Notes under the pieces: generated by a model
What the model saw: the letters and a program-made list of their open reading frames with translations, nothing else
What the model was told of the DNA's origin: nothing
Database searches by the model: none
Position numbers and translations under genes: made by a program
Part shown: positions 945 through 17,424 of the stretch, in pieces
How the letters are laid out: each line of letters begins with the position of its first letter
Position numbering within the stretch: position 1 is the first letter of the stretch
Origin: an uncultured archaeon
Lineage (GTDB): Archaea > Asgardarchaeota > Thorarchaeia > Thorarchaeales > Thorarchaeaceae
Direction of reading: 5' to 3'
Length of the DNA stretch: 43,601 bases
Assembly (NCBI GenBank): GCA_964473825.1
Contig: CAYYQL010000020.1
Span: 1-43,601, forward strand

Positions 945-1415
945 TCATTCAGGCTTGAAGTACTCTATGTCTGTTAGCCCACCTTTCCGTTTTGACTTGT
1001 CTTTAAGGACTACAGATACTCGCATCCCGATTTTCACGTCACTGGCATCAATTTCGCCAAGTTGGTGAATGAGCCCTCCATCAGTGCCATCCATCCTGAT
1101 GAAAGCGACCACTACAGGTTCAGCCAGCTTCTCGCTATCTCTGTCCTCATGTGTCACTGTAAATGTGTCAACAACACCGGTTGGTGGGACTTCTACATAT
1201 TCATCGAGTTTCTCGAAGCATTTCTCACAGTACATTCGGGGAGGCATGTAGGTTATTCCACACTTATCGCAGGAGGCAGCAAGGAGCTTACCCTCATTTC
1301 GTAATGCCATGAAGAACTTCTCACCTGCTATGCCTGCAGTATAGATGTAGTCTGCCTCCATATCTCCGACAAGATGTTGCGCCTTCAATGGATTGGTTAT
1401 TTTGTCGAATGACAT
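945..1415 (-). CDS. DUF35 family Zn-ribbon/OB-fold protein (thiolase partner)
   Basis: CDKC..PPRMYCEKC Zn ribbon followed by OB-fold (GVVDTFT..., IGMRVSVV); last gene of thiolase-thiolase-DUF35-DUF35 operon. Confidence 0.93.
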   Translation of the reverse strand: MSFDKITNPLKAQHLVGDMEADYIYTAGIAGEKFFMALRNEGKLLAASCDKCGITYMPPRMYCEKCFEKLDEYVEVPPTGVVDTFTVTHEDRDSEKLAEPVVVAFIRMDGTDGGLIHQLGEIDASDVKIGMRVSVVLKDKSKRKGGLTDIEYFKPE

Positions 1416-1419
1416 CTTT

Positions 1420-1944
1420 CTAGTCCTCCTTCAGTGGTTCGAAAAAGGCAATATCGCGAACAGAGCCAACTCTCTCCCCCTCGGGCTTCCAGACAGCACG
1501 GAGTTTCATTCCTATATGTAAGTCGTCGGGCTTACAGTTCCCTACAAGGTGGAGAATGCCCACGCCCTCACTTGCTCCGTCAAGATCAATGACCGCGACG
1601 AGAATCGGGTCATCTATTCGGTTTGCATCAGCGTCAAGATAGGATATCGAGTAGGTGTTGATTGTGCCAGTATCTTCGACTTCGACCCATTCATCTGTAG
1701 AACGGAAGCACTGTTCACAGAACATCCTGGGAGGCACTATCACCCGTCCACACTCTCGGCAACCGCGTCCAATGATCTTCCCGTTTTTGAGTCCTTCTAG
1801 GAACTTGCTGTATGCAATCCCCGCGCTCCAGACATACTTGGCATTGGGTCGCCACCGGAAGGCGATTGCGTCTTCAGCCTTGAGCTCAGAGTCGCGTAGA
1901 TATACTCCCGGAACGTCTTTCATTTTCTCACTCATCTCACTCAT
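1420..1944 (-). CDS. DUF35 family Zn-ribbon/OB-fold protein
   Basis: CRECG..PPRMFCEQC, GTINTYS, IGMKLRAVW; start placed at ATG 1944 overlapping the thiolase stop (ATGA). Confidence 0.93.
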   Translation of the reverse strand: MSEMSEKMKDVPGVYLRDSELKAEDAIAFRWRPNAKYVWSAGIAYSKFLEGLKNGKIIGRGCRECGRVIVPPRMFCEQCFRSTDEWVEVEDTGTINTYSISYLDADANRIDDPILVAVIDLDGASEGVGILHLVGNCKPDDLHIGMKLRAVWKPEGERVGSVRDIAFFEPLKED

Positions 1945-3104
1945 CTCCTGAATACCGTAACCGTGCCAACTTGCATGAGATCTCCCCATGCTTGGCACAC
2001 ACCAGTTTCTGCTCCATCTACTTGCCGCTTGCCAGCTTCATTTCTCAATTGCCAAAATGCTTCACAACACTTCATCAACCCGGCAGCTGCGATGGGATTC
2101 CCTACTCCCAGTAAACCTCCAGACGGACATATTGGGAGGTCGCCATCACGTTGTGTTACCCCTTCTGCGGTCAGCTTGGGGGCTTGGCCTTTCTCAGCGA
2201 GAAGTAGGCCTTCCATGTGATGTAGCTCCTTGTACGTGAACGGGTCATATGGCTCTGCAAAGTCGACCTCTTTCGGAGGGTCATCAATCTTGGCCATCTT
2301 GTACGCCATTTTTGCCGCCTCAGCAACATATTGTGGGAAGTACAGATCTCTATTTGTCCAGTAGGAGCTATCAAGTGACCATCCCACTCCGTCGATCCAG
2401 ACTGGAGAGTCAGTGTACTTCTTAGCAACATCTTCAGAGGCCAGGATCAAAGCGGCCGCCCCGTCACTGGGCGGACTGATATCCAATCGCTGTACTGGCC
2501 AAACCATAGTCTCAGAGTTCATCACGTCTTCAACTGTTATCTTGGCTGCCAGTTGAGCGCTTGGATGATCCAGTGCGTTGCCTTTGTTCTTCACCGCAAC
2601 TTCCGCAATGTGTTCTTTTGGAATATTGTGGGCCTGCATGTAGCGGTTCATCTCCAAGGCGAAGATCCATACAAGATTCGGGTTCAGAGGTCTAGTTATT
2701 ATTGGATCCCATATTGTACGAAACGCCGTTTGGGGGTGCGGTTGACATGGACTCATCTTCTCTTCTGCGACTACCATACAGGTATCGAAGAGACCAGAAG
2801 CCACATGCCACCAACCCGCTATCGGTGAGAACACCCCTGTGCCGCCACCTACAAAGGGTCTCATATATGGCCTCCCAACTCCACCTGCGCCGTCCAGCAG
2901 GTTCTCTGACTTCATGTGGATGCCATCAAAGGCGTCTGGAGCAGTACCCATCACTACACTCTCGATATCACTCAGATTCATCTCGGCTGAATCGAGTGCC
3001 ATCTTCGATGCATGATACGACAGCTCTTTTCCAGTCTCCTTTAATCTCCGCCTGAAGAGGGTGATTCCGGCTCCAATAACTGCTACGCGTCTCTTTATTG
3101 TCAT
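1941..3104 (-). CDS. SCP2-type thiolase-family protein (non-canonical active site)
   Basis: VAVIGAG, VAEEKMS, VAVKNKGNA..P.AQ, SPPSDGAAA, YDPF, SGGLLGVGNPIAAAG; start trimmed to MTIKRR. Confidence 0.92.
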   Translation of the reverse strand: MTIKRRVAVIGAGITLFRRRLKETGKELSYHASKMALDSAEMNLSDIESVVMGTAPDAFDGIHMKSENLLDGAGGVGRPYMRPFVGGGTGVFSPIAGWWHVASGLFDTCMVVAEEKMSPCQPHPQTAFRTIWDPIITRPLNPNLVWIFALEMNRYMQAHNIPKEHIAEVAVKNKGNALDHPSAQLAAKITVEDVMNSETMVWPVQRLDISPPSDGAAALILASEDVAKKYTDSPVWIDGVGWSLDSSYWTNRDLYFPQYVAEAAKMAYKMAKIDDPPKEVDFAEPYDPFTYKELHHMEGLLLAEKGQAPKLTAEGVTQRDGDLPICPSGGLLGVGNPIAAAGLMKCCEAFWQLRNEAGKRQVDGAETGVCQAWGDLMQVGTVTVFRR

Positions 3105-3117
3105 TCTCCATCTCCTC

Positions 3118-4269
3118 CTATTCTTCGCTCCCGAGAACCAGCATGCTACCTGTGGCTGTGGGCACACCACGCCATGATTGGGCGACTGCTGTGTCTATGT
3201 TTTTCAATTGCCTTTTCCCTGCATGACCTCTCAGCTGCAAGACGCATTCCAATACTGATTGAAGGGAGGAAGCCTCAAGTAAGTTGCCTGCTCCCAATCG
3301 GCCACCGGAGACATTGACGGGGTTTTCTCCATCTCTGTAGAATGCTCCATCTTCAAGGAGCTTGCCTGCCTCCCCCTTCTTACAGATTCCGATAGCCTCC
3401 AAGTGTTGCAGCTCTTTGTATGAAAACCAATCATCAACCTCCAATAGGCCAATCTCCTTCTTCGGATTTGTGATTCCAGCCATTTTGAAGGCCTTTTTGG
3501 CGGTCTTCCGTGCATAGGTAGCATCACTCCAATCTCGTGATTCTAGCCAGGGAGTTTCAGAAATCCAGCTTATTCCTTTCAGCCATATGGGATATTCTGA
3601 GAGTTCCTTGGCCTTCTCCTCCGAGGCAAGAACAAATACAACCGCCCCATCTGCAAGAGGACTGATGTCACGTCTGGTTAGTGGATCAGAAACCATTCCT
3701 GATTTCATCACCTCATCCACAGACATCACTGCAGGATATGCTGCAAGGGGATTGTCTAGCGCATTGTTCTTGTTCTTGGTGACCACGTGCGCACAATGCT
3801 CCCGCGTATTGCCGGACTCAGAGAGCCACTTCTTCATCTCAAGACCAGCAACAAAGAATGGATTCACATCCATGCTTCGATTATACACTGGGTCAAGTGC
3901 GTGGGTCACAATCCCTGTGAATGATAGCAGATCCGAGGCTTTACTATGAGACTCGACTGCCGCAATATCAAACAACCCCGTTTCAATCTGCATGGCCGCT
4001 GTAATGAGCGCCTGCATTCCGTCTCCGCTTATTGTACAGACCGAGCGAAGGACCGCACCAAGCTGGTCAGGCACAAACTCGTCAAAAATCGAGTAACCTT
4101 CCCAGTAGTCCTCAGCACCTGTGATGAAACTGCCAATGTCTTTCCTTGGATCGACTCCTGCATCCTCATATGCCTTGAGGGCAGCTTCAAACATCTGTTC
4201 TTTGAAGGAAACGTCGGGCGTTGTACTTCGAAAACCAGTATGTCCAATACCAACTATAGCTACTGTCAT
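3118..4269 (-). CDS. SCP2-type thiolase-family protein (non-canonical active site)
   Basis: VAIVGIGHT, KNKNNALDNPLA, SPLADGAV, EVDDWFSYKE, VNVSGGRLGAGN, QLRGHAGKRQ. Confidence 0.92.
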   Translation of the reverse strand: MTVAIVGIGHTGFRSTTPDVSFKEQMFEAALKAYEDAGVDPRKDIGSFITGAEDYWEGYSIFDEFVPDQLGAVLRSVCTISGDGMQALITAAMQIETGLFDIAAVESHSKASDLLSFTGIVTHALDPVYNRSMDVNPFFVAGLEMKKWLSESGNTREHCAHVVTKNKNNALDNPLAAYPAVMSVDEVMKSGMVSDPLTRRDISPLADGAVVFVLASEEKAKELSEYPIWLKGISWISETPWLESRDWSDATYARKTAKKAFKMAGITNPKKEIGLLEVDDWFSYKELQHLEAIGICKKGEAGKLLEDGAFYRDGENPVNVSGGRLGAGNLLEASSLQSVLECVLQLRGHAGKRQLKNIDTAVAQSWRGVPTATGSMLVLGSEE

Positions 4270-4433
4270 GGGAAGTACTTCCTCCATCTTGAATACCCAA
4301 GATTCCGAACATCCAACCTTGGTTATACCGGGAGATATTTAGGCCTCTATAAAGCCTTCCGAAATTTCGTGAGAATCAGCAACAGCTTGACCGGATGAGT
4401 AATCTTCATCTCAAATCCGTCAGGCGCGTAACT

Positions 4434-4691
4434 CTCGTCTTCGTATTTGCTATCGTTGATGGCTGAAACGTGGCTATCGCCAACGAGCTCCGCGGCTTGG
4501 ACCCCTGGGATGCTGAGTTTGGCATGCCGGTAAAGGTGGTCTGGCACGACAAGAAGACGCGTCGCGGCACGGTGACCGACTGGCACTTCGAGCCCGCAGA
4601 CGACTGGGAGCCGAGCCCCATGAACGACGAGAAGCGTCGCATCAAGGAGCTGTGCGAACCCGTCTTCGAATGGGTCAAGACGATGAAGTAG
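4434..4691 (+). pseudogene. 5'-truncated DUF35/OB-fold gene remnant with C-terminal helical extension
   Basis: LVFVFAIVDG*NVAIANELRGLDPWDAEFGMPVKVVWHDKKTRRGTVTDWHFEP...CEPVFEWVKTMK*; GMPVKVVW..RGTVTD.HFEP matches the C-termini of the two intact DUF35 genes here; in-frame TGA at 4464-4466; no Zn ribbon upstream. Confidence 0.8.
4623..4691 (+). repeat. Gene-tail repeat copy 1 (NDEKRRIKELCEPVFEWVKTMK*)
   Basis: Reference copy; core TCTTCGAATGGGTCAAGA at 4663-4680. Confidence 0.9.
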
Positions 4692-4703
4692 AATACACAT
4701 TGA

Positions 4704-4746
4704 TGAGCTGGAGTCGATAACTCCCAGCTCACTCTTCTTCTTTTTC
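4704..4746 (+). terminator. Hairpin plus pyrimidine tract after repeat copy 1
   Basis: TGAGCTGGAGT-cgata-ACTCCCAGCTCA (one bulge) followed by CTCTTCTTCTTTTT. Confidence 0.7.
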
Positions 4747-4766
4747 AGATATCGTTTTCTTGAGGA

Positions 4767-4979
4767 AACAAACTCTCCAAAACTTATTCCTGCTTGTCGT
4801 AAGATTGAACGTAATGTACCTTGAGCTAGTTTCTTGTGATCCGGAATTATCACAACTAGATTTCGTGGAGTCAGAAGTTTCTTCATTCTAACATGAGAGC
4901 CCTTTCTACCTACTATCTCAAATCATCTATCTGCGAGATACCTGATCATCTCTTTTCCAGAGAGAACTGGAGCTTTCAA
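4767..4979 (-). pseudogene. hicA: HicA family toxin with nonsense mutation
   Basis: From TTG 4979: LKAPVLSGKEMIRYLADR*FEIVGRKGSHVRMKK...IIPDHKKLAQGTLRSILRQAGIS; TGA at 4923-4925 replaces the conserved Gly of GF; no stop at the expected 3' end. Confidence 0.85.
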
Positions 4980-5188
4980 CTCGAAGCCTCAAGAAGAGAG
5001 ATAATTGGCTGGCCTGTAAGGGGTGGTCTTATTGCATCTTCATCTTCAAAATAGAGTTCCAGCGCTTCCTTGAGATTTGCCAGAGCCTCTTCTATTGTTT
5101 CACCTTGACTAGCAATATCTACATCTGGAGCAAGTGCAACATAGTGCTTTTCTTCACGACTAACGACCACAGTAAAGAACATTGACAT
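4976..5188 (-). CDS. hicB: HicB family antitoxin (short, no DNA-binding domain)
   Basis: YVALAPDVDIASQGETIEEALANLKEALELYFE signature; stop overlaps hicA start (TTGA). Confidence 0.9.
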   Translation of the reverse strand: MSMFFTVVVSREEKHYVALAPDVDIASQGETIEEALANLKEALELYFEDEDAIRPPLTGQPIISLLEASS

Positions 5189-5281
5189 CGAAACCACCTT
5201 CAAAGAATTCTCTATTAGTCTTTGTCAACCAACCTTTTGAACGCGTATCTGAATGAACATATGACCTGCGTAACTAGTCGC

Positions 5282-5314
5282 CCTGTCACCGACTGGGTCA
5301 AGACCATGAAATAG
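5282..5314 (+). repeat. Gene-tail repeat copy 2 (PVTDWVKTMK*)
   Basis: 27/33 nt identical to 4659-4691 by hand count, stop codon retained. Confidence 0.85.
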
Positions 5315-5330
5315 GCTCAACATGAACCAT

Positions 5331-5367
5331 CTGGGCGGCCATCTTCGTCCAGTACTTCCCTTTTTTC
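5331..5367 (+). terminator. Hairpin plus T-tract after repeat copy 2
   Basis: CTGGGCGG-ccatct-TCGTCCAG (with G-T pairs) then TACTTCCCTTTTTTC. Confidence 0.6.
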
Positions 5368-5484
5368 TGGTGCCGTATCTCGGAAGTTTCCTCGGATGGG
5401 CCAAGTAAACTCAATGTATCATCTAGAGCTCTATCTATGCAGACTTCAGTGTCCTCAGAGAACAGCATTCCACTTGATTCAGAG

Positions 5485-7377
5485 CTATGACGAGGACTTT
5501 TTACGGCGATGCAGAACAATCAGTGTTCCGAATACTGCGGCGACCCCCCCTCCAATAATGGTCACGATGAGGGACAGCATCTGGAGGCGAACGATGGGGT
5601 CAATGACCGTCACCATGACTGTGTCGGAAACGCTGTTGCCATGCACATCAGCCGCCACTATGGTGTAGATGTGGGTGCCAGCATCAAGACCGTCCACGGA
5701 GATGGTGATGGTCGCAGAACTCGAGTTCCACATCCCTGATTCCAGCGGCAGACCATTGAGGTAGATTGTATACGTGTCGGGGCTGAGGTCCTCAAGGACC
5801 CAGCTGATGGTGTGTCCTGTCGTGCCATGCTCGTACTCGATGTCTGCTGGACGACTGATCGTGGGCGGTGTTGTGTCCACCACGGTGACAAGCACCATGT
5901 CACTCCCCTCATTTCCTAGGATATCCCTTGCGACAAGTGTGTAGGCGTAGACTCCCACGGCAAGCTCGTCGATAGAGATGGTGATGGTCTCGGAGCTTGT
6001 GTTCCAGACTCCCGTTCTCACCACTGTATCGTTGCGATAGACAGCGTAGCTGTGGGGGTTCAGGTCCTCAGGACTCCACGTGATGGTGTGCCCAGTGGTC
6101 CCGTACTCGTACGCGATATCTTCCGGACCGTCGACCGTGGGCGGGATGTTGTCGATCCGATAGGGATGGTTGTCGATGCTCTCTGCTGAACCCGGAATGA
6201 GGTAGGCGCCGTCGCCATCATAGTCGTCCCAGTAGTTGCCGTGTGTACCATTGTCCCAGGTATTCGCAGTGCCGTTGTCCATGGCATTGTGCTGAGCGTT
6301 GTCGTAGAGCCGGTTGAGAGACAGCAAAACATCCTGACTGGATCTGCTTAGACAGACGCCACAGACATTGTCGGTAGCGGTATTGTTGATGAACACGCAG
6401 TCAGAGCCACCCAATAGGAAACCTCTCTCACCGTTACTAATGGCCGCGTTGCTGATCAGGGTGCATTCATCAGCGTCCAACAAGAATCCCGTCCGACCAT
6501 TGTTGATAGCACTGTTCATCGTCATGGTGAGATGATTGTGGGAAATGAACAAGAAACCATGGTCGGTGGCATTGCTGGCAATATTCCCTATCATGATGGA
6601 TGCTGAACCATACAGGAAATAGAACCCGCCCAGATTCTTGACAGCTCTGTTATCCGTGAAGGTGCCGTTGGAGTAGTGGAAAAAGAAACCATCTCCTGAA
6701 CTGTTCGTGACGATGTTGGCTGTATAGATGCAGTTGTAGGCGAATTTGGCAGAGATTCCCTTTCCACCAGTATCGCTGATGGTGTTGTTCTCAATGATAG
6801 AGTCACGAACAATCCAGAAACTGATACCGCCCCACTCGCTATCGTTGATGGTGTTGTTCAGGATGGTGCAGTCACTTGAGTGATCGATGTAGACTCCACA
6901 TTCATTGCTCCATAGGATGCTGTCCGCCACGGTGCAGTTAGGCGACGAAGAGAATCTCACTCCGTACCCGTGCAGCTCAATGACACAGTCCTTCACAGTT
7001 CCATGGGTCACGTTGTCAAAGACGATGCCATCGCTGCTGGTCGGCAGAGGTGCCGAGATGAGACAGTCCCTTATCTCGAAGTAGACATCTGTGTTGTTGA
7101 CAGTGATGCATGTTGAGCTGTGTATGATCCGCAGCCCCTCGATGACATAAGGGTCATCTTCAGTCCCGCTCCCCGGCCATTCCTGGTCCTCGAAGTCAGC
7201 GTTCCCGTTGATGGTGATGGGTCCGTGGGGGGTATAGGAGAGGACAGAGTTCACCTGCTGCTCCTTTCGACTGACCCGGCTCTCTCGGAATGATCCATGG
7301 GTGACCATGCAGACATTCGATAGAAGCAGCGCTACAAGGACCAGCAGTGTATAGACTCGACGTTCCCACTCACCCAT
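5485..7377 (-). CDS. Cell-surface protein: signal peptide, NosD/CASH right-handed beta-helix, two Ig-like repeats, C-terminal TM anchor
   Basis: WPGSGTEDDPYVIEG, Asn-ladder repeats, GNYWDDY motif, two ~92-aa D..PPT...GTTGHTI.W units, TM followed by RRKK; GGAGGA before ATG 7377. Confidence 0.9.
   Translation of the reverse strand: MGEWERRVYTLLVLVALLLSNVCMVTHGSFRESRVSRKEQQVNSVLSYTPHGPITINGNADFEDQEWPGSGTEDDPYVIEGLRIIHSSTCITVNNTDVYFEIRDCLISAPLPTSSDGIVFDNVTHGTVKDCVIELHGYGVRFSSSPNCTVADSILWSNECGVYIDHSSDCTILNNTINDSEWGGISFWIVRDSIIENNTISDTGGKGISAKFAYNCIYTANIVTNSSGDGFFFHYSNGTFTDNRAVKNLGGFYFLYGSASIMIGNIASNATDHGFLFISHNHLTMTMNSAINNGRTGFLLDADECTLISNAAISNGERGFLLGGSDCVFINNTATDNVCGVCLSRSSQDVLLSLNRLYDNAQHNAMDNGTANTWDNGTHGNYWDDYDGDGAYLIPGSAESIDNHPYRIDNIPPTVDGPEDIAYEYGTTGHTITWSPEDLNPHSYAVYRNDTVVRTGVWNTSSETITISIDELAVGVYAYTLVARDILGNEGSDMVLVTVVDTTPPTISRPADIEYEHGTTGHTISWVLEDLSPDTYTIYLNGLPLESGMWNSSSATITISVDGLDAGTHIYTIVAADVHGNSVSDTVMVTVIDPIVRLQMLSLIVTIIGGGVAAVFGTLIVLHRRKKSSS
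5602..6153 (-). repeat. Intragenic tandem duplication of a 92-aa Ig-like domain (276-nt period)
   Basis: DNIPPTVDGPEDIAYEYGTTGHTITW.. and DTTPPTISRPADIEYEHGTTGHTISW.. Confidence 0.85.
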
Positions 7378-7615
7378 GTTTGCTCCTCCAGGTCTACGTA
7401 CCAACACCATACTTGGAAACAGGCCCTTTCAAGTCTTTCTTGCAGTCCCATTCTCCTTGAGTGTTTCTTGATGCTCTGGATACGGAAGTGTGTCTTTCAG
7501 CACCACAGTTGAGTAACCGGCAGCACATCCTGGTGTTGTTCCGTGATACATCACTCTCTACCCTCCTGCTATCGTTCTTCGACGGCTGCCTAAGAGATTT
7601 GCATTTCCATCTTCG

Positions 7616-8458
7616 CTACCCGAGTTTCGGACCAATGACAAAGCCTCCGTTCGGATTGCCATCATATTTCTGAGGGGTGTCCTCTTCATCACGTTCTTTG
7701 AATACCATGAAGCTATCAAACGCCTCGTCATACACAATCTCCTGAGCCACATTGCACCCATATGATCGTATCAGCCCATTCCATTCAAGGATGTAATGGT
7801 AGGTCCATACTCCATTCTCCAGATCATGATCCTCGAATGATACTCCGTTGTAGTGGCAAGCCGATGTCGCAAACACATTCGCACTGTTGTCGATGTTTTC
7901 GAGGTCGTCCAAGAAGCCACCAGAATGACAGAAATCAAGGAATAGGAAGATGCGCCTTGCCACCGCTGTGGCCAGTATTGAGGCAATCTCAGAATCGTAG
8001 AGGTAGCTCTCCTCCCATGTAACGAAGTATGTTTCAGTTGTTTCACCAATCTGGCCACCATGACCAGCGAAGATGACTGCGATGTGATCATCAGAGTCAG
8101 CAACACCCACCAGCCAGTTCAGGGAGTTCACGATGTTGGTCTTCGTCGCCAGTGCGTAGTAGCTCTGATAGTAGCTTGTGTCATCTCCCAGAACCCTTAC
8201 CTCATCAAACTCAATCGTACAGGTAAGGAAGCAGTACCAATCGTTCGCGTCATCATCGGCATAGTCTAAATCATTAACTCCCGTGGAGTCATCATAGTCG
8301 CTGATCCCGACAATGACTGCGTAATAGTTGACTGTTGTTGCTCTTGCATCTGGGATTGACCCAAGACCAAGGATCAGGACGCCAAGGAGCAGTACAACAA
8401 CAACTCGCTTCCTCCTCGGCCACCTGTGGTTGATATCTACAGCATGAAACACAGACAT
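7616..8458 (-). CDS. Caspase-like (clan CD, C14 metacaspase-type) peptidase with N-terminal signal/TM segment
   Basis: YAVIVGISDY, DLDYADDDA, ATKTNI, FAGHG (His) and LDFCHSGG (Cys) dyad; RRKR plus hydrophobic stretch at the N-terminus. Confidence 0.88.
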   Translation of the reverse strand: MSVFHAVDINHRWPRRKRVVVVLLLGVLILGLGSIPDARATTVNYYAVIVGISDYDDSTGVNDLDYADDDANDWYCFLTCTIEFDEVRVLGDDTSYYQSYYALATKTNIVNSLNWLVGVADSDDHIAVIFAGHGGQIGETTETYFVTWEESYLYDSEIASILATAVARRIFLFLDFCHSGGFLDDLENIDNSANVFATSACHYNGVSFEDHDLENGVWTYHYILEWNGLIRSYGCNVAQEIVYDEAFDSFMVFKERDEEDTPQKYDGNPNGGFVIGPKLG

Positions 8459-8639
8459 ATACCCCCTTTGTGTTAGAAACTCACGAAACTATTAGATACA
8501 TTGCCTTATATTTTTTTGTTCAAAGGTTTGGTTATAGAAGCGCTGTCAACCCGACACAGAGCTATGATGGGCGCGGCGAGACGTCCAGCACGTCTCTCAA
8601 ATTGCCCCGCCTTGTTACGCCGTTGAGTCCCGTTTCACT

Positions 8640-8708
8640 GATGACGAGAAGCGATTCATCAACGAGCGCTGCGAGTCCGCCTTCGAATGGGTGTGGACAA
8701 TGAAACAG
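8640..8708 (+). repeat. Gene-tail repeat copy 3 (DDEKRFINERCESAFEWVWTMKQ)
   Basis: 52/69 nt identical, ungapped, to 4623-4691 by hand count; TAG changed to CAG. Confidence 0.88.
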
Positions 8709-8719
8709 ACTTGAAACGA

Positions 8720-8754
8720 GGGAGATGGAATAATTCAGCTCTCATCCCTTTTTC
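8720..8754 (+). terminator. Degenerate hairpin plus T-tract after repeat copy 3
   Basis: GGGAGATGGAATAATTCAGCTCTC then ATCCCTTTTTC; shares GAG.TGGA...CAGCTC with the copy-1 hairpin. Confidence 0.5.
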
Positions 8755-8881
8755 ATACAACTCCAATTCGTTTCTTTCGATGTCACAGGAGTCTGTCGTA
8801 TCTCGGTATTGAGAGGACACCTTCGAGTTTATATGCCGAATCTGATGTAGGGGTGTTTGGAACAATCAAGAGGGGTCGAAC

Positions 8882-9277
8882 ATGCTCGACAATAGTGAGA
8901 TAGTACGAAGAATTCTGGAAGCCGCACCAGAAGGCATCAGTCTCATTGTATTATTTGGTTCAAGAGCCCGAGGTGACCACTCTGAAGCAAGTGATCTTGA
9001 TATTGCCATCAGCACAACAGAAACAGACGCGCAGAAACGATTTGATCTTCGACTCCAGGTCATCTCTGCACTGGAAGGGCCCGAAACTGCCGTAGATGTG
9101 GTTCTTGTTGAAGATGCGAATTGGACTCTACGTTATCGCATAGCGAGAGATGGAGTTGTACTGTTTCAGAGGAATCCCGACTCGTGGTCCGATTTCATTG
9201 AAGAAGTCCTCATACGATATCCCGACTACAGAATCTTTGAACAGCGTCTGCTCAGAGAAACACTGGGAGGTCTCTAG
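8882..9277 (+). CDS. mntA: Minimal nucleotidyltransferase (MntA-type antitoxin)
   Basis: LFGSRARGDHSEASDLDIA, VDVV, IARDGVVLF. Confidence 0.92.
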   Translation: MLDNSEIVRRILEAAPEGISLIVLFGSRARGDHSEASDLDIAISTTETDAQKRFDLRLQVISALEGPETAVDVVLVEDANWTLRYRIARDGVVLFQRNPDSWSDFIEEVLIRYPDYRIFEQRLLRETLGGL

Positions 9278-9278
9278 G

Positions 9279-9710
9279 GTGGGTCTTGATGCAACAATTG
9301 TCGAGCGACGACTAGCAGTCATTCTAGAGGAGCTCAAGTTCTTGAAGATCATAAAAGCACAGAGCTATGATGAGTTCTTGACTGATGGAAAGAGCCTAAG
9401 GGCAACAGCTAGAGCCATTGAGACCATTGCCCAGTCGATAATCGATGTCAGCAGCCACATTGTTGCCCAGAAGAACTACGGGCTTAGTGATACCTACAAA
9501 GGTACAATCGAGCTCTTAGCTAAGAACCACATCATCCCCAGTGATTTTGCATCTAGTCTACAGAAGGTCATTGCCATGCGGAACGTGTTAGTGCATCAGT
9601 ACATAGAGATCGATTTCGGAATAGTATGGGATTCAATCGACTCTCTTCTGGTTGATGCGCCGAGATTCGTCCGTGCAATTGAGAAGTATTTGAAGGCCGA
9701 AGCGGCATGA
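9279..9710 (+). CDS. hepT: HEPN/DUF86 RNase toxin (HepT-type)
   Basis: RNVLVHQY.EID (Rx4H-Y) motif; GTG start directly after the MNT stop. Confidence 0.92.
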   Translation: MGLDATIVERRLAVILEELKFLKIIKAQSYDEFLTDGKSLRATARAIETIAQSIIDVSSHIVAQKNYGLSDTYKGTIELLAKNHIIPSDFASSLQKVIAMRNVLVHQYIEIDFGIVWDSIDSLLVDAPRFVRAIEKYLKAEAA

Positions 9711-9734
9711 CACACGAGACTGTAACATCATTGT

Positions 9735-10100
9735 CTAGGCGATGTTCCAGAACACGACAAGGTCATCCGACCACTTGAAACGTCATTGAAGAAGAATCAG
9801 GCTGCAGTGAATGCAACCATAGTCGTGGAAACTCTACACTATCTTGTGAAACGTCTAGGTTCCCTGGAGGGACCAAAGAGAGGGCGCATCTTTCTGAGCT
9901 ATGAGATGCCGTTCTACAGTATAGATGAAGAAACAGCTGATTTGACGGTCACGAAACTTGGCTAATTCACCCATCTTGGGATTGGTGGACGAAATCCGAC
10001 AGTCTTGGCAACTATATCAGTTGAGTGTATAACCAGCTTGATGACGCATGATCAAGCGTTCAAACGTATTCCTGACCTTGATGTGGTTGATCCAGTATAG
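9735..10100 (+). pseudogene. vapC: VapC/PIN-domain toxin remnant
   Basis: LGDVPEHDKV...VVETLHYLVKRLG...KLG*FTHLGIGGRNPTVLAT...LMTHDQAFKRIPDLDVVDPV*; N-terminal Asp strand missing, internal TAA at 9963-9965. Confidence 0.8.
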
Positions 10101-10103
10101 ATC

Positions 10104-10142
10104 TGTGAGCCGGTCTTTGAGTGGATAAGAACTATGAGATAA
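10104..10142 (+). repeat. Gene-tail repeat copy 4 (CEPVFEWIRTMR*)
   Basis: 26/39 nt but 9/12 aa identical plus 3 conservative changes versus 4653-4691; stop kept; followed by the same GAGCTGGAGT as copy 1 (10157-10166 vs 4705-4714). Confidence 0.85.
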
Positions 10143-10349
10143 TCATGTAGCATGAAGAGCTGGAGTTCTCCGGTCCCCTCCTCTCAGCCTTCAGTGTATT
10201 CACGATCCATTTCCATTCAGTACTAGAGTGATCCATGTAACTCTGGTACTGGTGTGAAACAGACAAATGAAGGAACCAAAGCAGAGGATGCAAAGGTATA
10301 AACTCGAAGAAATGCTTGAAAGAGCCATCAGCCGTGGGAGATATTGTCC

Positions 10350-10775
10350 ATGCCCAAGTTACCTGAGCCACGCAAGAAACGCTACATGCAGAAGATACAT
10401 CATGGTCGACATCGGATTGCACTTGTCAAAGAATGGCAAAAGGAAGGAGCATCTGAATATGAAATAAAGAGTCTGTTAGCAATAGAGAAAGCGGCTCAGG
10501 AATCTATTGAAGTTGCTACAGACTTGATGGCGATGATTCTGAAGGACATATCCATCCCGCCGACCGATGATTACACTAATATCTCAAAGGTTAGAGATGA
10601 GGGTATCATAACGGAGGAAATTGGAGGGGTTCTGAGAGAAGCCAATGGGCTTAGAAATCGTCTTATTCATGTGTATAATGACATAGAGCAAGAAGTGCTT
10701 TTGCAAAGCATCAAACGAGTCATTCCCGGAATATCCGAGTTCTTGGATGTGGCGGAAAAATGGTTGAGCGGATGA
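10350..10775 (+). CDS. hepT: HEPN/DUF86 RNase toxin
   Basis: AIEKAAQESIE, PTDDYTNI, GLRNRLIHVYN. Confidence 0.9.
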   Translation: MPKLPEPRKKRYMQKIHHGRHRIALVKEWQKEGASEYEIKSLLAIEKAAQESIEVATDLMAMILKDISIPPTDDYTNISKVRDEGIITEEIGGVLREANGLRNRLIHVYNDIEQEVLLQSIKRVIPGISEFLDVAEKWLSG

Positions 10776-11200
10776 TATCTAAAACCAGAGATGAACTTGA
10801 TTGGATGCAAGAGATACCTGAGATTGATGCAGTTCTCCTATTCGGTTCTCAAATTGAAGGTACTGCCACAGATACAAGCGACTACGACCTCTGCGTTGTT
10901 GCTTCAACTCTTCAATCCGCAGACGAGATGGCAGAACTTCTTGGTAAGATTTGGAGGCAGTTGGATGCAAACAAGTATGATGTTTGGGTCTTTGAAGAGC
11001 TACCTTTGTACCTCCAGATGACTGTAATCGGTAACCATGAGATTCTTTTCTGTGACGATGTCCCCGACCTCTATGAATACTTCTATAGATTCAGAAAAGA
11101 GTGGAGAACCCAAGCGCAGAGGCAGTCTCTGGATTTTGAAGTCGGTGCTGATCCGATGAATCTCAAGGAGATTTGGAAAACAGGATCCTCGTCCACATAA
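10772..11200 (+). CDS. mntA: Minimal nucleotidyltransferase antitoxin
   Basis: LLFGSQIEGTATDTSDYDLCV, YDVWVFEELPLY; ATGA overlap with the HEPN stop. Confidence 0.9.
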   Translation: MISKTRDELDWMQEIPEIDAVLLFGSQIEGTATDTSDYDLCVVASTLQSADEMAELLGKIWRQLDANKYDVWVFEELPLYLQMTVIGNHEILFCDDVPDLYEYFYRFRKEWRTQAQRQSLDFEVGADPMNLKEIWKTGSSST

Positions 11201-11213
11201 ACTGCGCTTCACT

Positions 11214-11321
11214 TCATAACCTCAATAAGGTGATGATAGGGTTCCTCGTCAGTGGTGGTCTAATCGCATGTTCCTCCTCGAGATAGAGTTCCTAAGCTTC
11301 CTTGAGCTTCGCGACAACCAG
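11214..11321 (-). pseudogene. hicB: HicB remnant (C-terminal half)
   Basis: LVVAKLKEA*ELYLEEEHAIRPPLTRNPIITLL aligns to EALANLKEALELYFEDEDAIRPPLTGQPIISLL of the HicB at 4976-5188; TAG at 11292-11294. Confidence 0.8.
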
Positions 11322-11483
11322 CTCATTTCTCTATCTCCTCACTCAAGAACCGATCAGGGGCCAATTCAAGGTCCAGAGGGTTGATGAGCTCGAAACTCAT
11401 GTCATGATAGGATATGCCAAATGTATATCTGGCGACAATCCATGGTATTGGCTATTATCACTTGGCTTAGGAGTTGTCAGAAC

Positions 11484-12401
11484 TTGCAGACGTGTCCAAA
11501 GTGTGGGAGAGCGAATGATGTGACGAGGAAGTTCTGCGTTCGTTGCGGGGCCTCTCTCCTAAATAGAGAAGAAGAATTGACGCCAGAACCTGTCAGGGCG
11601 CCTGCAACCGAACCAGTCCTAGAAGAGACTGTTGAATCCGAAGAAGCTGGCGTAGAACCTCCGGGCGAGGTACCCTCTGATTTGGTGAAAGCCGAAAAAG
11701 CTGGACCGGCCGAGTCCCATGTGCTGGACCGTGAGAGCGGGAAGGCGGTTGTCAAGGACATCCTTGAGAAGGTAAGAGCCGTGCAGACGGTTCCCCGGGC
11801 GGAACCTGAGGTCAAGGAGCCAACCTCAGAAGTGGAGGTCGTTGAGGAAATACCCGTTGAGGTTATTGAAGAACAACCGCCCGTTGAGGCGCCAACGACT
11901 GAGCCAGAGATTGAGCCCTCCTCTCCCGAGCCCCCAGCTCCGCGACCCAAAGAGGCTATTATGCATGACTATGCTCCGGACGTTCCTCCTTCAGCTGTTG
12001 CAGAGGCTGTTTATGAAGTCGCACGAGATGAGAAGATCAGAAGCATTGATTCAGACATCAAGGCCTATACCATCGAACTCGGACAGCTAAACTCCGAGCT
12101 GGACAAGTTGCGGGCTCGTCTTGACTCCGAGGTTGACCGTTACCTCACCGTTGCCGAAACAAAACGGACTCATTTTGAGGGCCTAGAGCGGGAGCTGAGC
12201 CTCGCAAAGAACGAGTATAAAGAGGCAAGTAAGGAACACAAGAACTCGGAGAAACGTCGGAAGAAAGAGTTGTCAGAAGCAGAAAAGCGTATCCGGAATT
12301 CGGAAAAGCGAATCAAGAAGGCGGAGAACGCCAGACAGAAGCGAGTTGACAAACTGGAGAAAGAGCGGCGAAAACGCGAAGAAGAAGCCATGAGGGATTA
12401 G
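11484..12401 (+). CDS. Zinc-ribbon protein with acidic Pro/Glu-rich linker and C-terminal coiled coil
   Basis: CPKCGRAN...FCVRCG; E/P-rich middle; heptad E/K/R-rich tail; TTG 11484 preceded by AGGAG. Confidence 0.85.
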   Translation: MQTCPKCGRANDVTRKFCVRCGASLLNREEELTPEPVRAPATEPVLEETVESEEAGVEPPGEVPSDLVKAEKAGPAESHVLDRESGKAVVKDILEKVRAVQTVPRAEPEVKEPTSEVEVVEEIPVEVIEEQPPVEAPTTEPEIEPSSPEPPAPRPKEAIMHDYAPDVPPSAVAEAVYEVARDEKIRSIDSDIKAYTIELGQLNSELDKLRARLDSEVDRYLTVAETKRTHFEGLERELSLAKNEYKEASKEHKNSEKRRKKELSEAEKRIRNSEKRIKKAENARQKRVDKLEKERRKREEEAMRD

Positions 12402-12406
12402 GTTTC

Positions 12407-12431
12407 TCTTCGAATGGGTCAAGAGTATGAA
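12407..12431 (+). repeat. Gene-tail repeat copy 5 (outer boundary)
   Basis: TCTTCGAATGGGTCAAGA identical to 4663-4680, then nnATGAA (23/25). Confidence 0.85.
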
Positions 12432-12512
12432 TTGCAGCGGTGACAATCGAGTCGGCCCTATAGGCCACTTGGCCGAATAAGAGAAAAGCCCGTCTGCTCC
12501 TAGAGCAGAACC

Positions 12513-12996: not shown

Positions 12997-13458
12997 CTAG
13001 AACGCTCTTTCCATCCAAGGTCCTTTGTAGTCTCTTATGAAGACAACTCCAGCTAGGATTGCCATTACTCCAGCGAGAAACCCTGGCGCAAGGAGAATGA
13101 TTGCGTCGCCCAGTTCGGCTCCGAACATAAAAGGCACAACGATGGTCATGATTCCCCCACATATCCCACAACATGGGGTGGCCTGTACTCGTTGTCCTGT
13201 GTCTCTGGTTGTCACCGTCCTGGTGTACGTCCCGTCGTAGTTGGGTGTTTCGACTACAGTCTGGTCCATCACGGCAGTGAGGCCTCCCTTGTATGCCATG
13301 CCCATCCCTAGAAACATCACGATGGACAGAGTTCCTGCAACCATGGCGCCGACCCAGTCATCAAAGGCAATTAGACTGAGAGCAGCCTGAGCGATGAGGA
13401 ATAATGACGATATGAAGAACAGAATCGCACTGTTTCTTGATCCTTTCAAGATTCGCAT
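12997..13458 (-). CDS. Hypothetical membrane protein (4 TM, Thr-rich loop, CCGIC motif)
   Basis: Hydrophobic pairs flanking a polar loop. Confidence 0.8.
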   Translation of the reverse strand: MRILKGSRNSAILFFISSLFLIAQAALSLIAFDDWVGAMVAGTLSIVMFLGMGMAYKGGLTAVMDQTVVETPNYDGTYTRTVTTRDTGQRVQATPCCGICGGIMTIVVPFMFGAELGDAIILLAPGFLAGVMAILAGVVFIRDYKGPWMERAF

Positions 13459-13530
13459 TCTCCCTAGAGCCTAGGATTATCCAATCTAAGTAATATCTCT
13501 TTCAGATACGACGAACCAAGGTTGTTCTGA

Positions 13531-13869
13531 TTATTGGTCGTTGCCGAACACTTCAGCCACGATGTTCTGCAGTATCACCATGTCTGCGAAGTTGCCGCTA
13601 CCTCGCTTTAGACCCTCAGGATAAGTCTTCTCCACCCTCTTCTTGAAAGCCTTGAGATACTCCTTGACCTTAGGCGTTTCATGTCTGACGAGAGCACTGT
13701 AGACGGCATATGTCCCCATCTCGTGGACTAGCGTAAGTTCTCTTGATCTGACTCTTGCTGGAATCTCGGAAGGATTCTTCTTGAGTTCCTCATCAAAGAA
13801 GTAAGAATAGAGTGGCTGACCCGTGTCCTCATCGAGTATCAGGCAGCCCAACACTTCCGGTATCATCAT
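13531..13869 (-). CDS. Small longin-like domain protein
   Basis: GCLILDEDTGQPLYSYFF beta-hairpin start and L..F...VEKTY helix resemble longin-fold proteins; fold call is inference. Confidence 0.65.
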   Translation of the reverse strand: MMIPEVLGCLILDEDTGQPLYSYFFDEELKKNPSEIPARVRSRELTLVHEMGTYAVYSALVRHETPKVKEYLKAFKKRVEKTYPEGLKRGSGNFADMVILQNIVAEVFGNDQ

Positions 13870-14052
13870 AAATCATGCTGCATAAAGCGTATCAGGATAT
13901 TACTGCTTGCACGGCGAAATGGAACGTTCAAGATCACGTTAGTTTGCTGTGTCTGGCTGAGAGAAAGGCGTCTTCAATCAGTTTCTCTCGCGTCGAAGAA
14001 GGATATGAAACACATATAGATGAAGGAAGCTTCTCTTTGGGAGGTGAAACTC

Positions 14053-14721
14053 GTGGGTATATCGATTCGTTTGCTAGCTCATGCGAGCGTACAGATTAGG
14101 ACAGACACTCAGAACATCTACATAGACCCAACGACAAAAGGGACAGGTCTCAAGAAGGGCGACTTCAGCCCTGCAGATTTGATACTGGTCACACACGGCC
14201 ATCAGGATCATTTCGACAAGGGTCTAATCAAGAAGATTCGGAAGTTGGGGTCACCAGTGATAGCTCCCGAGGGCCTCAAGAAGGAGTTGAAAGGGGCTGT
14301 GGTGTGGGGGATGGATTCAGGTCAGCACATGGTGATAAGTGACGGACCTACCATCTGGACGACTCCGGCATATAATGTGAAGAGATTCCGCTCCCCCGGG
14401 AAGCCATATCATCCTCAGGGATTGGGAGTTGGCTACATCATCAAGCTGGATGATAAGAAGATATACCATGCCGGCGATACAGACTTGATTCCGGAGATGG
14501 AGCGGCTCCCCGAGCTTGATGTCGCACTACTCCCAAGTGGCGGGACCTATACGATGGACATGACTGAGGCTGCTGAGGCGGCAATCCTCATCAAGCCGAA
14601 GATTGCGATTCCTATACATCTCCGAGATGCCGACCCTCAGGGTTTCAAAGAGCAAGTTGAGAAGAACTCTTCAGCGAGAGTTGTCATTCTGGGTCACGGT
14701 GAGGAGTACGTGCTTGAGTGA
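14053..14721 (+). CDS. Metallo-beta-lactamase fold hydrolase (UlaG/UPF0173-like)
   Basis: IYIDP, LVTHGHQDH, IYHAGDT, AIPIH; GGAGGTGA before GTG 14053. Confidence 0.92.
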   Translation: MGISIRLLAHASVQIRTDTQNIYIDPTTKGTGLKKGDFSPADLILVTHGHQDHFDKGLIKKIRKLGSPVIAPEGLKKELKGAVVWGMDSGQHMVISDGPTIWTTPAYNVKRFRSPGKPYHPQGLGVGYIIKLDDKKIYHAGDTDLIPEMERLPELDVALLPSGGTYTMDMTEAAEAAILIKPKIAIPIHLRDADPQGFKEQVEKNSSARVVILGHGEEYVLE

Positions 14722-14796
14722 GTTTCTCTCTGAAGGCAACTTGTTTTCCGTCCGAGGAAAAACATAATTACCACACGGTGAGTGACTTCCATTTGA

Positions 14797-16470
14797 TTGG
14801 TGATATGTGTGGTTAGAGAACTCAGTATTGGGCTAGCTTTCATTGATTCCGCCTCTAGAAAACGAGAATTGTCGAAGGAAGAGACCTATGTCACCACCCT
14901 TGCTTTAGCTGAGCATCAGAAGGTTGGTCATCCGCGTGTTGCAGGCCTCAGTCTGGTTGGATTGCCCTTCTGGCTCGTCCAGACAAGTGCTTCAACATCA
15001 ATAGTGCTCGCTCCCTCAAGTGCCACTTCTGCTGAATTCGGATTCACAGAAAATCCCCATGTTAGTGATATGCGGAAGACACTCATGAGTGGAGTTTCAG
15101 AGCCCAAGGATGTCCCAGCTGCAGTGGACCGATTGATCAAGAATTTGGCTGAGCTGGAGAACAGAACTCAGAGGATTCAATCGGTGGAAGACCCGTCTGC
15201 TCTACTCTCAGCCGCGGACTATGTCAGTCCTTCTTCATCAGAACAATCCGTCTCGCTCATCGAAGGCGCCGTCACGTCCCAAGATGCACTCTTGGCGAGC
15301 GGGACTTATCAGGATCTGAAAGAGTCAATATCTGTTCGCATCAAGGCCATGGAAGAACTCCGTTCATTGGCAGACGAGAAACTAGGCGGCCAGCTATCAG
15401 TCATCGAGAACATAATCTCCACAGATGAACGAAGGTATCAGCAGCAGCTGGAACACATGCAGCAGACCGTTGATTACGACATAGAGCAGTTAAGGGAGAA
15501 GATCAATCGTCAGGTCTACTCCCTACGCGAGAAGCTCACAATGGACCTGCGTGCGAGGACTGCTGATTTTGCCCGATCACTGACTCAAATCGAGTCACTA
15601 CTCGGCAATCTGCTCGGTGAGACAAGGTCCTCTCAAGCAGCAGTCAACGAGAAGGGCGAAGACGTACAAGGGGCTGTTTCGGTTTTCATGGATTTCTCTG
15701 AAACGCTTAGAGACCGTACCTCGGATATTCCTGAGGTTGTGACAAAGGTTGAGTCTTACGCTCAGATGCTGCTAAAATCTGCTGAGGAGCTTCGTGAGGG
15801 TTTTGATGAGGAACGGAAGAAAGCCGAGGCCATGTATGAAGAAGAGGTCAAGAAGAAGAGGGATCGGGTCGAGGCCTTCAGAGAAGAGATGGATGCAAAG
15901 ATTGAGAGCCTCCGGGTGATACGTGACGAGGTCAAGGTATCGCTAGAGCGACTGGATGCAGAAATCAACAACCGCATTGTTCAGCTTCAGGCTGAGTTTC
16001 TCGATGTCACTAGGATCTCCATAGAAAACGAAAGAATCGAGGGGATTGCACCCCTTACTCGGCTAACGGTCAACTGTGCAGTCATCACTTATCCTGATGG
16101 AAAGACACAGCTTCTGTTTCCGTATTCTGTGCCTGATGAGCGAATTGGTGCGACCTTACATCATCATCCAGTAAGTCGCCCGCTTGCAGAGAGGCTTTCC
16201 TCTAGTGTTCAGAAGTGGCTCAAAGAAGACCCTACCTTCGCGAACGCCTTTGAACGTGCAATCCGAGAGGGGAACATCTTCCTGCAGGAAGATGCCGGAC
16301 GCATCATAGAAGACGGGTTGTTCAAGCTTCAGGCAAGTCAGAGGCTCCAAGACGGCGCAAAGGGAATACTCAAGACCATCTGGAACCGTTATTCAGGTAA
16401 GTGCCCGAAATGCGGTGTAGCGGTGGCAATCGGTGACGAGTTCTGCCCGAAGTGTGGTGCAACCATCTGA
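14797..16470 (+). CDS. Long coiled-coil protein with C-terminal zinc ribbon
   Basis: Central heptad-rich region; terminal CPKCG...FCPKCG. Confidence 0.85.
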   Translation: MVICVVRELSIGLAFIDSASRKRELSKEETYVTTLALAEHQKVGHPRVAGLSLVGLPFWLVQTSASTSIVLAPSSATSAEFGFTENPHVSDMRKTLMSGVSEPKDVPAAVDRLIKNLAELENRTQRIQSVEDPSALLSAADYVSPSSSEQSVSLIEGAVTSQDALLASGTYQDLKESISVRIKAMEELRSLADEKLGGQLSVIENIISTDERRYQQQLEHMQQTVDYDIEQLREKINRQVYSLREKLTMDLRARTADFARSLTQIESLLGNLLGETRSSQAAVNEKGEDVQGAVSVFMDFSETLRDRTSDIPEVVTKVESYAQMLLKSAEELREGFDEERKKAEAMYEEEVKKKRDRVEAFREEMDAKIESLRVIRDEVKVSLERLDAEINNRIVQLQAEFLDVTRISIENERIEGIAPLTRLTVNCAVITYPDGKTQLLFPYSVPDERIGATLHHHPVSRPLAERLSSSVQKWLKEDPTFANAFERAIREGNIFLQEDAGRIIEDGLFKLQASQRLQDGAKGILKTIWNRYSGKCPKCGVAVAIGDEFCPKCGATI

Positions 16471-17174: not shown

Positions 17175-17424
17175 GAGAGTCCCACCTTACGATGCTGTAC
17201 TGTGAATAGTCTGGCTATTAAATCCATTACCATAATGTCATTTTGTTTGCATTTCTCTGAAACTTGACGAGTGACCAACCATGGATAGGTGTCATCTTTT
17301 GATCGGATGGTTGGAGCAATCGGCGATTCTTGCAGCAGCTGGAGGAAACCCTGCGATAACCGCCTCTTTGGGAGAACACAAAACCCTTTTGAGACATGTC
17401 AGGAGTCGGGTGTGTGGTGAACGA

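Follow-up and report, generated by a model that had tools for sequence, protein, structure and literature searches.

Stacked orphan 3' ends of a DUF35 gene bound accessory-gene blocks in Thorarchaeota: an apparent accretion array without a recognisable integrase

We analysed a 43,601-nucleotide (nt) stretch of Thorarchaeota DNA (the window), which is the entire 43.6-kb contig C20 of the genome referred to here as G000 (3.27 Mb, 103 contigs). Starting at the remnant of a gene for a conserved DUF35 protein (c0), five same-strand copies of the 3' end of that gene separate four blocks of accessory genes. The locus is not an integron and is best classed as a 3'-end displacement or accretion array, and the distribution of such arrays appears to be lineage-wide. 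Arrays of the same anatomy recur across the family, empty as well as filled sites are present in relatives, and the two tails flanking one block relate to the corresponding single tail of a relative in the manner of attL, attR and attB. No known recombinase accompanies the arrays, and an unrelated gene, uS19, shows the same pattern. The mechanism we favour, to which we give about an even chance of being right, is serial accretion at gene 3' ends that is guided by homology and independent of a recombinase.

Results

Anatomy of the array in the window

A first-pass annotation of the window had described five same-strand copies of the tail of a DUF35-like gene, and a repeat search, a profile and a pattern test all located them (Table 1). 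In the repeat search, a 25-nt core, TCTTCGAATGGGTCAAGACGATGAA, was found on the plus strand at 4663, 5286, 8680, 10114 and 12407 with 68–92% identity to copy 1, and the repeat between copies 1 and 3 reaches 67 nt. A nucleotide profile built from the last 123 nt of 16 intact c0 genes of relatives places the copies at 4570–4690, 5277–5314, 8640–8706, 10099–10140 and 12375–12433, the convincing part of the last match being 12407–12431 only. A 23-nt pattern allowing at most three mismatches matched four of the five copies and had no match in 100 shuffles. Just as the annotation had noticed no copy in the rest of the window, blastn-short, a six-frame motif scan and tblastn found no further tail there or in the other 102 contigs. 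A dispersed genome-wide element is ruled out as an explanation of the motif, which occurs at one G000 locus only, while the stem of the hairpin that follows copy 1 has six matches in the whole genome. This hairpin is the only significant one behind a tail of the window in a DNA fold test.

The parent gene c0 encodes a conserved protein of 219–221 amino acids (aa) with a zf-ChsH2 zinc ribbon and an OB fold, and in relatives it always lies after a thiolase-like gene of about 425 aa, c1. Copy 1 does not end a live gene, and the parent is distinct from both DUF35 genes at 945–1998. What is left at copy 1 is a 5'-truncated remnant that retains about 80–91 of 219 codons, with a frame that opens only past a stop at about 4466, and that is 88% identical in amino acids to residues 129–219 of c0 in G002, a genome of the same genus. 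Where the window has an inverted four-gene operon, G002 retains the complete genes c1, of 428 aa, and c0, of 219 aa. Window positions 677–816 align to the beginning of c1 in G002 and the sequence just ahead of it, and no second copy of c0 or c1 was found in the G000 genome. Because c0 itself has been destroyed in G000, the gene is dead there, the array is a fossil and accretion at this locus is over.

A further relative, G005, has this four-gene operon in co-orientation, with orphan c0 tails directly behind it, and the final DUF35 gene of the operon itself seems to terminate in a tail of the c0 type.

Table 1. Coordinates of the array, its cargo and its flanks in the window
Feature	Position	Strand	Basis and remarks
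c1 start remnant	781–849	+	c1 nt 1–35 and 103–140; weak nhmmer matches, E 0.067 and 0.011 (profile of 27 c1 starts)
Inverted operon of two thiolase-like and two DUF35 genes	945–4287	-	Pfam; replaces most of c1 and the first ~130 c0 codons
c0 remnant, 5'-truncated	4452–4691	+	More than 40 relatives' genes align only from 4451–4458 onward; upstream stop
Copy 1	4623–4691	+	Last 23 codons of the truncated c0 remnant
Terminator-like hairpin GAGCTGGAGTC..ACTCCCAGCTC and T/C-rich tract	4705–4748	+	Native; DNA fold z = -3.1
Block 1: hicA (4733–4886), hicB (4976–5203)	4733–5203	-	Pfam
Copy 2	5277–5314	+	Orphan tail, stop retained; repeat search and profile
Block 2: NosD/beta-helix and Ig surface protein (5485–7410), caspase-like protease (7616–8458)	5485–8458	-	Pfam (caspase C14)
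Copy 3	8640–8708	+	Orphan tail, stop decayed to CAG; orthologous to an orphan at the same place in G002 and G001
Block 3: MNT (8882–9277), HepT (to 9710), PIN/VapC remnant (9745–10094)	8882–10099	+	Pfam; remnant via relatives
Copy 4	10099–10142	+	Orphan tail, stop TAA; differences from copy 1 mostly synonymous or conservative
Block 4: HepT (10344–10775), MNT (10760–11200), Zn-ribbon coiled-coil gene (11421–12401)	10344–12401	+	Pfam
hicB remnant within block 4	11232–11319	-	Repeat D3
Right arm of displaced hairpin within block 4	about 11310–11327		Arm matches G002
Copy 5	12407–12431	+	Orphan tail, stop decayed; perfect 18-nt match with copy 1; adjoins the ancestral downstream flank
Ancestral downstream flank: c38 (12997–13458), c39 (13531–13869), MBL-fold gene, c40 (14797–16470)	12997–16470

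The tails do delimit four cargo blocks, as the annotation had proposed, and Pfam recovered the genes it had read from the translations: HicA/HicB, a NosD beta-helix protein with Ig, a caspase (assigned to C14), MNT/HepT twice, and a coiled-coil protein with a Zn ribbon. By the same analysis, the cargo between the copies is mutually unrelated. The PIN/VapC remnant of block 3 was recognised through relatives, since it aligns to PIN genes of loci L054 and L022. Block 2 is 82–87% identical in nucleotides to its counterparts in G002 and G001, and the HepT-MNT-Zn-ribbon order of block 4 is also found behind an orphan tail in locus L059.

The annotation had named an assembly chimera of strains as a possible undoing of the array, and this was checked in public sequencing runs with Logan unitigs and contigs, not reads; contigs drop rare variants, and runs holding fewer than 12% of the words were left uninterpreted. 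Every tail copy, as well as the junction at 4452, is spanned by unitigs from three samples of one study, two taken in 2018 and one in 2021, so the array is not an assembly chimera. The tail copies of the window share at most 18 identical bases, which is not enough to mislead an assembler.

Arrays behind c0 in relatives

The relatives compared are Thorarchaeota metagenome-assembled genomes (MAGs), of which 60 were searched for the parent gene. The tail profile was run over 42 named c0 loci with up to 10 kb on each side, plus extra stretches; the resulting orphan counts are lower bounds because very short remnants score below the profile threshold. Orphan tails were found at 18 of the 42 loci, with 1–11 per locus, and all of them lie downstream of c0 on the same strand; none was detected in the up to 10 kb upstream. 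In G031, where the array is largest, 12 copies of the tail are spread over 30 kb, and arrays were also found within a 415-kb contig. At L045:18400-18470, a tail remnant of about 20 nt (GAACGAGTCAAGACCATGAAGTA) that is below the profile threshold follows a HepT/MNT pair.

The two ends of the orphans behave differently. The 3' ends fall at profile positions 116–123, nearly all at 120–123 (the stop codon), while the 5' starts are scattered over profile positions 1–98, that is, from 21 to about 380 nt before the stop, with long orphans reaching 85–128 codons. Every orphan keeps at least the last ~21–25 nt. Such a spread of 5' starts would not result from a fixed att core. Behind each of the relatives' tails, whether intact or orphan, a hairpin lies at a distance of 8–20 nt; its stem is often GAGYTGG..CCARCTC, and a T/C-rich tract comes next. 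Hairpins of the type found behind copy 1 accompany the c0 tails of most relatives, and the stem has the same sequence behind intact and orphan tails across genera, and only six hairpins of this type were counted in the whole G000 genome.

Compared with the nearest intact tail, mismatches of the orphans are distributed 28/23/49% over codon positions 1/2/3 (23/14/63% for pairs of intact genes), and several long orphans differ nearly only at third positions. This coding-type divergence indicates that the orphans were once parts of working genes, some of them from other lineages. Intact tails are closer to the tails of their nearest relatives than most orphans are: the intact tails look native and the decayed orphans foreign, whereas fresh orphans are not distinguishable in this way and the values for G031 are unreliable owing to an indel. 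The most conserved 12-mer of c0 is GAATGGGTCAAG, which shows low synonymous variation; similar clusters exist elsewhere in the gene.

Empty and filled sites

In two distant relatives (loci L061 and L062), an intact c0 is followed directly by c38, c40 and c39 without any orphan tail. Because c0 adjoins c38 at these empty sites, the 7.7-kb array of the window sits between c0 and its ancestral neighbour.

Comparison with G002 resolved the gain or loss of one block. The hicAB block together with one tail is an indel between the two genomes whose ends fall precisely at copies 1 and 2. From the 3' part of copy 2 onward, through the hairpin behind it and the NosD block, the window is orthologous to the intact tail of G002 and the DNA downstream of it (82% identity over window positions 5282–5369). 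The single G002 tail begins like copy 1, with the 5' part GTCTTCGAA, and continues like copy 2, with the 3' part GACCATGAAATAG, after which come the CTGGGCGG hairpin and NosD. Written schematically, the G002 tail is X5'+Y3', copy 1 of G000 is X5'+W3' and copy 2 is V5'+Y3', so the three tails relate to one another as attB, attL and attR do. The crossover lies within the shared TGGGTCAAGAC.

A second difference follows this rule at one end only. G000 has 2.7 kb extra between copy 3 and the Zn-ribbon gene, consisting of block 3, copy 4 and the second HepT/MNT pair, where the order in G002 is tail, hairpin, Zn-ribbon gene. The left end of this insertion is just past copy 3, but its right end is apparently at the right arm of the same hairpin, with no recognisable tail. 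The expectation of the annotation that relatives would gain or lose whole blocks at the repeats is consequently borne out exactly for hicAB and fails at the right end of the 2.7-kb difference. Block 3 is located elsewhere within the array of G002.

Inside the G002 array (L034:15100-19582) are c39, a gene of the ancestral flank, and ~180 nt from the start of the MBL-fold gene, so the flank has been rearranged or partly duplicated in that genome. Behind this piece are more tails and an MNT/HepT/VapC block, and the contig ends there.

A second target gene

The uS19 gene of G000 (C60:8092-8511; L078:3093-3512) has an orphan tail 1.9 kb downstream (C60:10399-10443; L078:5400-5444), which consists of the last 15 codons plus the stop and matches at 38 of 45 nt. 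One to three uS19 orphans each were found in G002, G007, G016, G019 and G022, bringing the genomes with uS19 arrays to at least six with G000. All of these orphans are downstream of the gene, share its strand and keep the register of its stop codon, and behind every one of them come a small hairpin and a T/C tract. Since c0 and uS19 share no sequence and yet carry the same arrays, the process is not tied to one target sequence. The uS19 case turned up in a crude scan of the G000 genome for orphan tails, which showed no downstream excess over upstream and which missed the c0 locus because a spurious antisense open reading frame (ORF) masked it. In G002, 16 kb separate the uS19 gene from the orthologous orphan.

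Recombinase and nuclease searches

No integrase had been seen by the first-pass annotation, and Pfam searches for the tyrosine, serine and SSV-type families agree in finding none on array contigs. Tyrosine recombinases (PF00589) are on no array contig; 16 of the 41 family genomes have a match and 25 have none, and G031 is among those without, although its genome is 97% complete and its array is the largest. Serine recombinases (PF00239) were absent from G000 and from the array contigs of the five genomes searched, and SSV-type integrases (PF16795) from five genomes. The one PF00589 match of G000 is on contig C1, with none on C20. It is a 380-aa protein, the only tyrosine recombinase of the genome, encoded within the region C1:51628-58474 (L076), where its neighbours are two paralogues of 732 and 569 aa that resemble each other at the C-terminus, and the region is probably an ordinary integrated element. 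We rejected it as the driver of the arrays, as it looks like such an element and most array-bearing relatives have no counterpart.

The arrays themselves encode ordinary accessory functions only, as judged by Pfam analysis of about 60 array ORFs from G000 and relatives; TPR, LRR, GNAT, CAAX protease, HxlR, cupin, ABC ATPase, ammonium transporter, heliorhodopsin and DinB proteins are among them. No protein family recurs across arrays. The sole nuclease-like pair is in the slot adjoining the intact c0 of G031 (L023:6560-11499), where a 1028-aa HerA-like ATPase is encoded with a 618-aa protein that has five NUMOD3 motifs and an HNH domain; this could be a defence pair or a homing-type nuclease. 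In the array of the window, Pfam identified no homing endonuclease gene, and Cas1, the casposase, had no Pfam match among the ten window-array proteins scanned or about 50 array ORFs of relatives.

Discussion

Comparison with known systems

Arrays of displaced C-terminal ends are known from rhs, contact-dependent inhibition (CDI) and type VI secretion system (T6SS) effector-immunity loci (Kirchberger et al. 2017, PMC5361080; Jackson et al. 2009, as cited in PMC5361080). As in the Thorarchaeota, a conserved gene is followed there by same-strand, 5'-truncated orphan 3' ends, there is no integrase, and modules are exchanged between lineages. For the rhs and T6SS arrays, joining through a homologous anchor plus an illegitimate join was proposed, followed by ordinary homologous exchange of whole arrays (PMC5361080). 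The scattered 5' boundaries and the lack of recombinases in our arrays are consistent with formation of this kind, although no event was caught in progress. The difference is that a variable toxin tip and its immunity gene are under selection in those systems, whereas here the repeated piece is the conserved end of DUF35 or uS19 without a variable domain, the gene has no relation to the cargo, which includes HicAB, MNT/HepT, NosD, caspase, methyltransferase and heliorhodopsin genes, and the host genome is archaeal.

The 3' ends of archaeal protein-coding genes are known to harbour arrays of integrase-bearing elements, namely thaumarchaeal integrated mobile genetic elements (iMGEs) with reused sites, and casposons (PMC6563490). 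The tycheposon islands of Prochlorococcus are stacks with scattered partial tRNAs (bioRxiv 10.1101/2020.12.28.424599). The Thorarchaeota arrays resemble iMGEs and tycheposons in that blocks land at the 3' end of a gene and are flanked by direct repeats of it, newcomers push older blocks along, both empty and filled sites exist in relatives, and the cargo is of the accessory or defence type. In contrast to those elements, which hold integrases or their fragments and have short att sites of fixed extent, our blocks are just 0.6–10 kb of ordinary genes in which no integrase was found, bounded by repeats of 21 to about 380 nt. Casposons differ in their duplications of about 14–15 bp, against 21–380 nt here, and in Cas1, which is missing among the scanned array proteins; the terminal inverted repeats typical of casposons were not searched.

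The integron-like stacking described by the first-pass annotation is a likeness in appearance only. Integrons share stacked cargo, a recurring site, a richness in toxin-antitoxin genes and an order that varies between relatives. On the other hand, no IntI (by PF00589 and Pfam), attI or attC was found here, and no GTTRRRY box of attC was seen on reading the core; the repeats are co-linear and derive from coding sequence, unlike the imperfect inverted repeats (R''-L''...L'-R') of attC, the cargo has its own terminators, and the blocks are of 2–4 genes on both strands instead of single promoterless cassettes in one orientation.

In organelle genomes, free-standing homing endonuclease genes lie behind partial C-terminal duplications of their host genes. 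There, too, insertion at a gene 3' end restores the frame with the incoming tail and leaves the displaced tail downstream. The endonuclease is itself the cargo in those cases, whereas an HNH/NUMOD3 gene occupies only the first slot of G031 and none is present in the window. Within the collection of papers searched, no description of integrase-free tail arrays in Asgard archaea was found.

A homology-guided route and its rivals

Under the mechanism we favour, the incoming DNA would carry a 5'-truncated 3' end of c0, the terminator hairpin and some neighbouring genes, and it may be a circle looped out of another array or a chromosomal fragment of a relative. Its tail would pair with a resident tail, and insertion could proceed by a single Campbell-type crossover or by a homologous anchor combined with an illegitimate join, as in homology-facilitated illegitimate recombination. 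The product would be one intact gene end and, beyond the new block, a silent promoterless orphan tail. Repetition at any tail would stack the blocks, and tail-to-tail recombination would delete them, release them as circles or move them, with general homologous recombination as the presumed enzymology. The annotation had suggested that the 3' end of a metabolic gene serves as the attachment site and that either a trans-acting recombinase or short-homology recombination drives the accretion. That blocks accreted and tails were displaced is supported, but the site is not peculiar to a metabolic gene, as uS19 is used too, and the target in the window is a dead remnant. Of the two drivers, short-homology recombination fits the data better and a trans-acting recombinase less well, with neither demonstrated.

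Several observations weigh against homology-guided accretion. With a profile of the first 150 nt of c1, no orphan head was found in about 192 kb upstream at 27 loci, while 16 orphan tails were counted over about 161 kb on the downstream side of these loci; because a neutral homologous process should yield heads too, either selection or an intrinsic 3' polarity must be invoked. Purifying selection could explain the tail-only pattern, since tails would be silent and heads expressed. The sole resolved crossover lies in the most conserved 12-mer of c0 and suits the core of a site-specific system equally well, and the hairpin stem GAGYTGG..CCARCTC behind most tails could be a putative protein-binding site. 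The recombinase searches covered three Pfam families, which a novel family would escape. No repeat-to-repeat joint, circle or deletion variant was found in the unitigs of the three samples, in which rare forms are invisible; the absence of excised forms is only weakly informative for this reason. Finally, identity in the 5' and 3' parts of intact genes is weakly overdispersed (best |z| = 4.1 among 595 pairs), and we do not use this mosaic signal as evidence.

Several of these points count in favour of a site-specific scheme, in which a trans-acting, unrecognised recombinase, either of a new family or one whose integrases were lost from decayed elements, would use the tail end plus hairpin as att and the blocks would be integrase-less elements mobilisable in cis. 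Strict 3' polarity without heads is typical of integrative elements (PMC6563490). The attB/attL/attR relation with its crossover in the most conserved 12-mer, the conserved stem that is not a genome-wide repeat, the retention of the last ~21–25 nt by all orphans and the HNH/NUMOD3 endonuclease and HerA-like ATPase adjoining the intact gene of G031 would also fit. We nevertheless consider such a recombinase somewhat unlikely. A classical integrase/att system is disfavoured by the variable length of the duplications (21 to about 380 nt), the derivation of the orphans from working genes, the occurrence of the arrays at two or more unrelated targets, the lack of a protein family recurring across arrays and the scarcity of recombinases, none of the tyrosine, serine or SSV type being on array contigs and most family genomes, including that with the largest array, having no match to the tyrosine recombinase family. 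A recombinase specific for one sequence is disfavoured in particular because the unrelated uS19 gene has the same arrays, and in the comparison with G002 one of the block boundaries does not coincide with a tail. Homing-type double-strand-break repair, in which a nuclease would cut near the gene end and a donor allele with tail, cargo and tail would be copied in, would produce the 3' polarity and require nothing beyond flanking homology, which the gene supplies to the left and an orphan tail plus hairpin to the right, and the first slot of G031 does hold an HNH/NUMOD3 gene. It leaves the first orphan at a site unexplained, however, and neither the window array nor the other annotated arrays contain an endonuclease gene, which makes it quite improbable.

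An artefact, be it a chimeric assembly of strain variants or in-place duplication and decay of a tail, is suggested by the origin of the genome as a MAG and by the contigs of relatives, which often end inside arrays. It is largely refuted and in our view extremely improbable: the unitigs of 2018 and 2021 cross every copy, the copies are too diverged to collapse in assembly, arrays are also present within the 415-kb contig, the orphans show coding-type divergence and foreign affinities instead of simple decay of the resident tail, and the cargo between copies is unrelated. An unrecognised recombination system stays under consideration on account of the restriction to tails, the conservation of the hairpin and the position of the crossover within the most conserved 12-mer. 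A bolder version of this idea, which we rate as unlikely, is that Thorarchaeota, and perhaps Asgard archaea generally, might have a dedicated system for capturing blocks and shuffling them among conserved genes, at the 3' ends of these, guided by the incoming tail and the terminator hairpin rather than by a fixed att. If so, it would be an integrase-free functional analogue of the integron for which many genes could be docks, and the tail-only polarity and the conserved hairpin would be features of the mechanism and not products of selection.

If gene ends widely act as integrase-free landing pads in Asgard archaea, they would be a main route of accessory-gene gain and exchange, with a cargo that ranges from toxin-antitoxin, defence and surface proteins even to heliorhodopsin, and this would bear on gene flow in the lineage that gave rise to eukaryotes. 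Orphan tails can be used to date and order the insertions, and the long ones carry a signature of the donor lineage. In annotation, they account for many short "conserved" intergenic pieces and for the tendency of contigs to break just behind certain core genes.

Additional observations on mobile cargo

An ORF of 261 aa that recurs in the arrays was considered as a hidden recombinase and as an ancestral neighbour of c0. Both were ruled out, since it is a class I S-adenosylmethionine (SAM) methyltransferase and is found in seven loci only. Across four genera, this module is 88–93% identical in nucleotides, including its non-coding flank, while c0 is about 75–80% identical there; this identity and the presence of two copies in one array indicate that the module was recently transferred between genera. 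Its sites include L022:6611-7396 and 17166-17951 (the two copies in one array), L027:5709-6494, L029:6913-7698 and L030:2300-3085. A heliorhodopsin gene (Pfam E = 9e-90) at L022:5216-6040 is cargo between two orphan tails of the G031 array.

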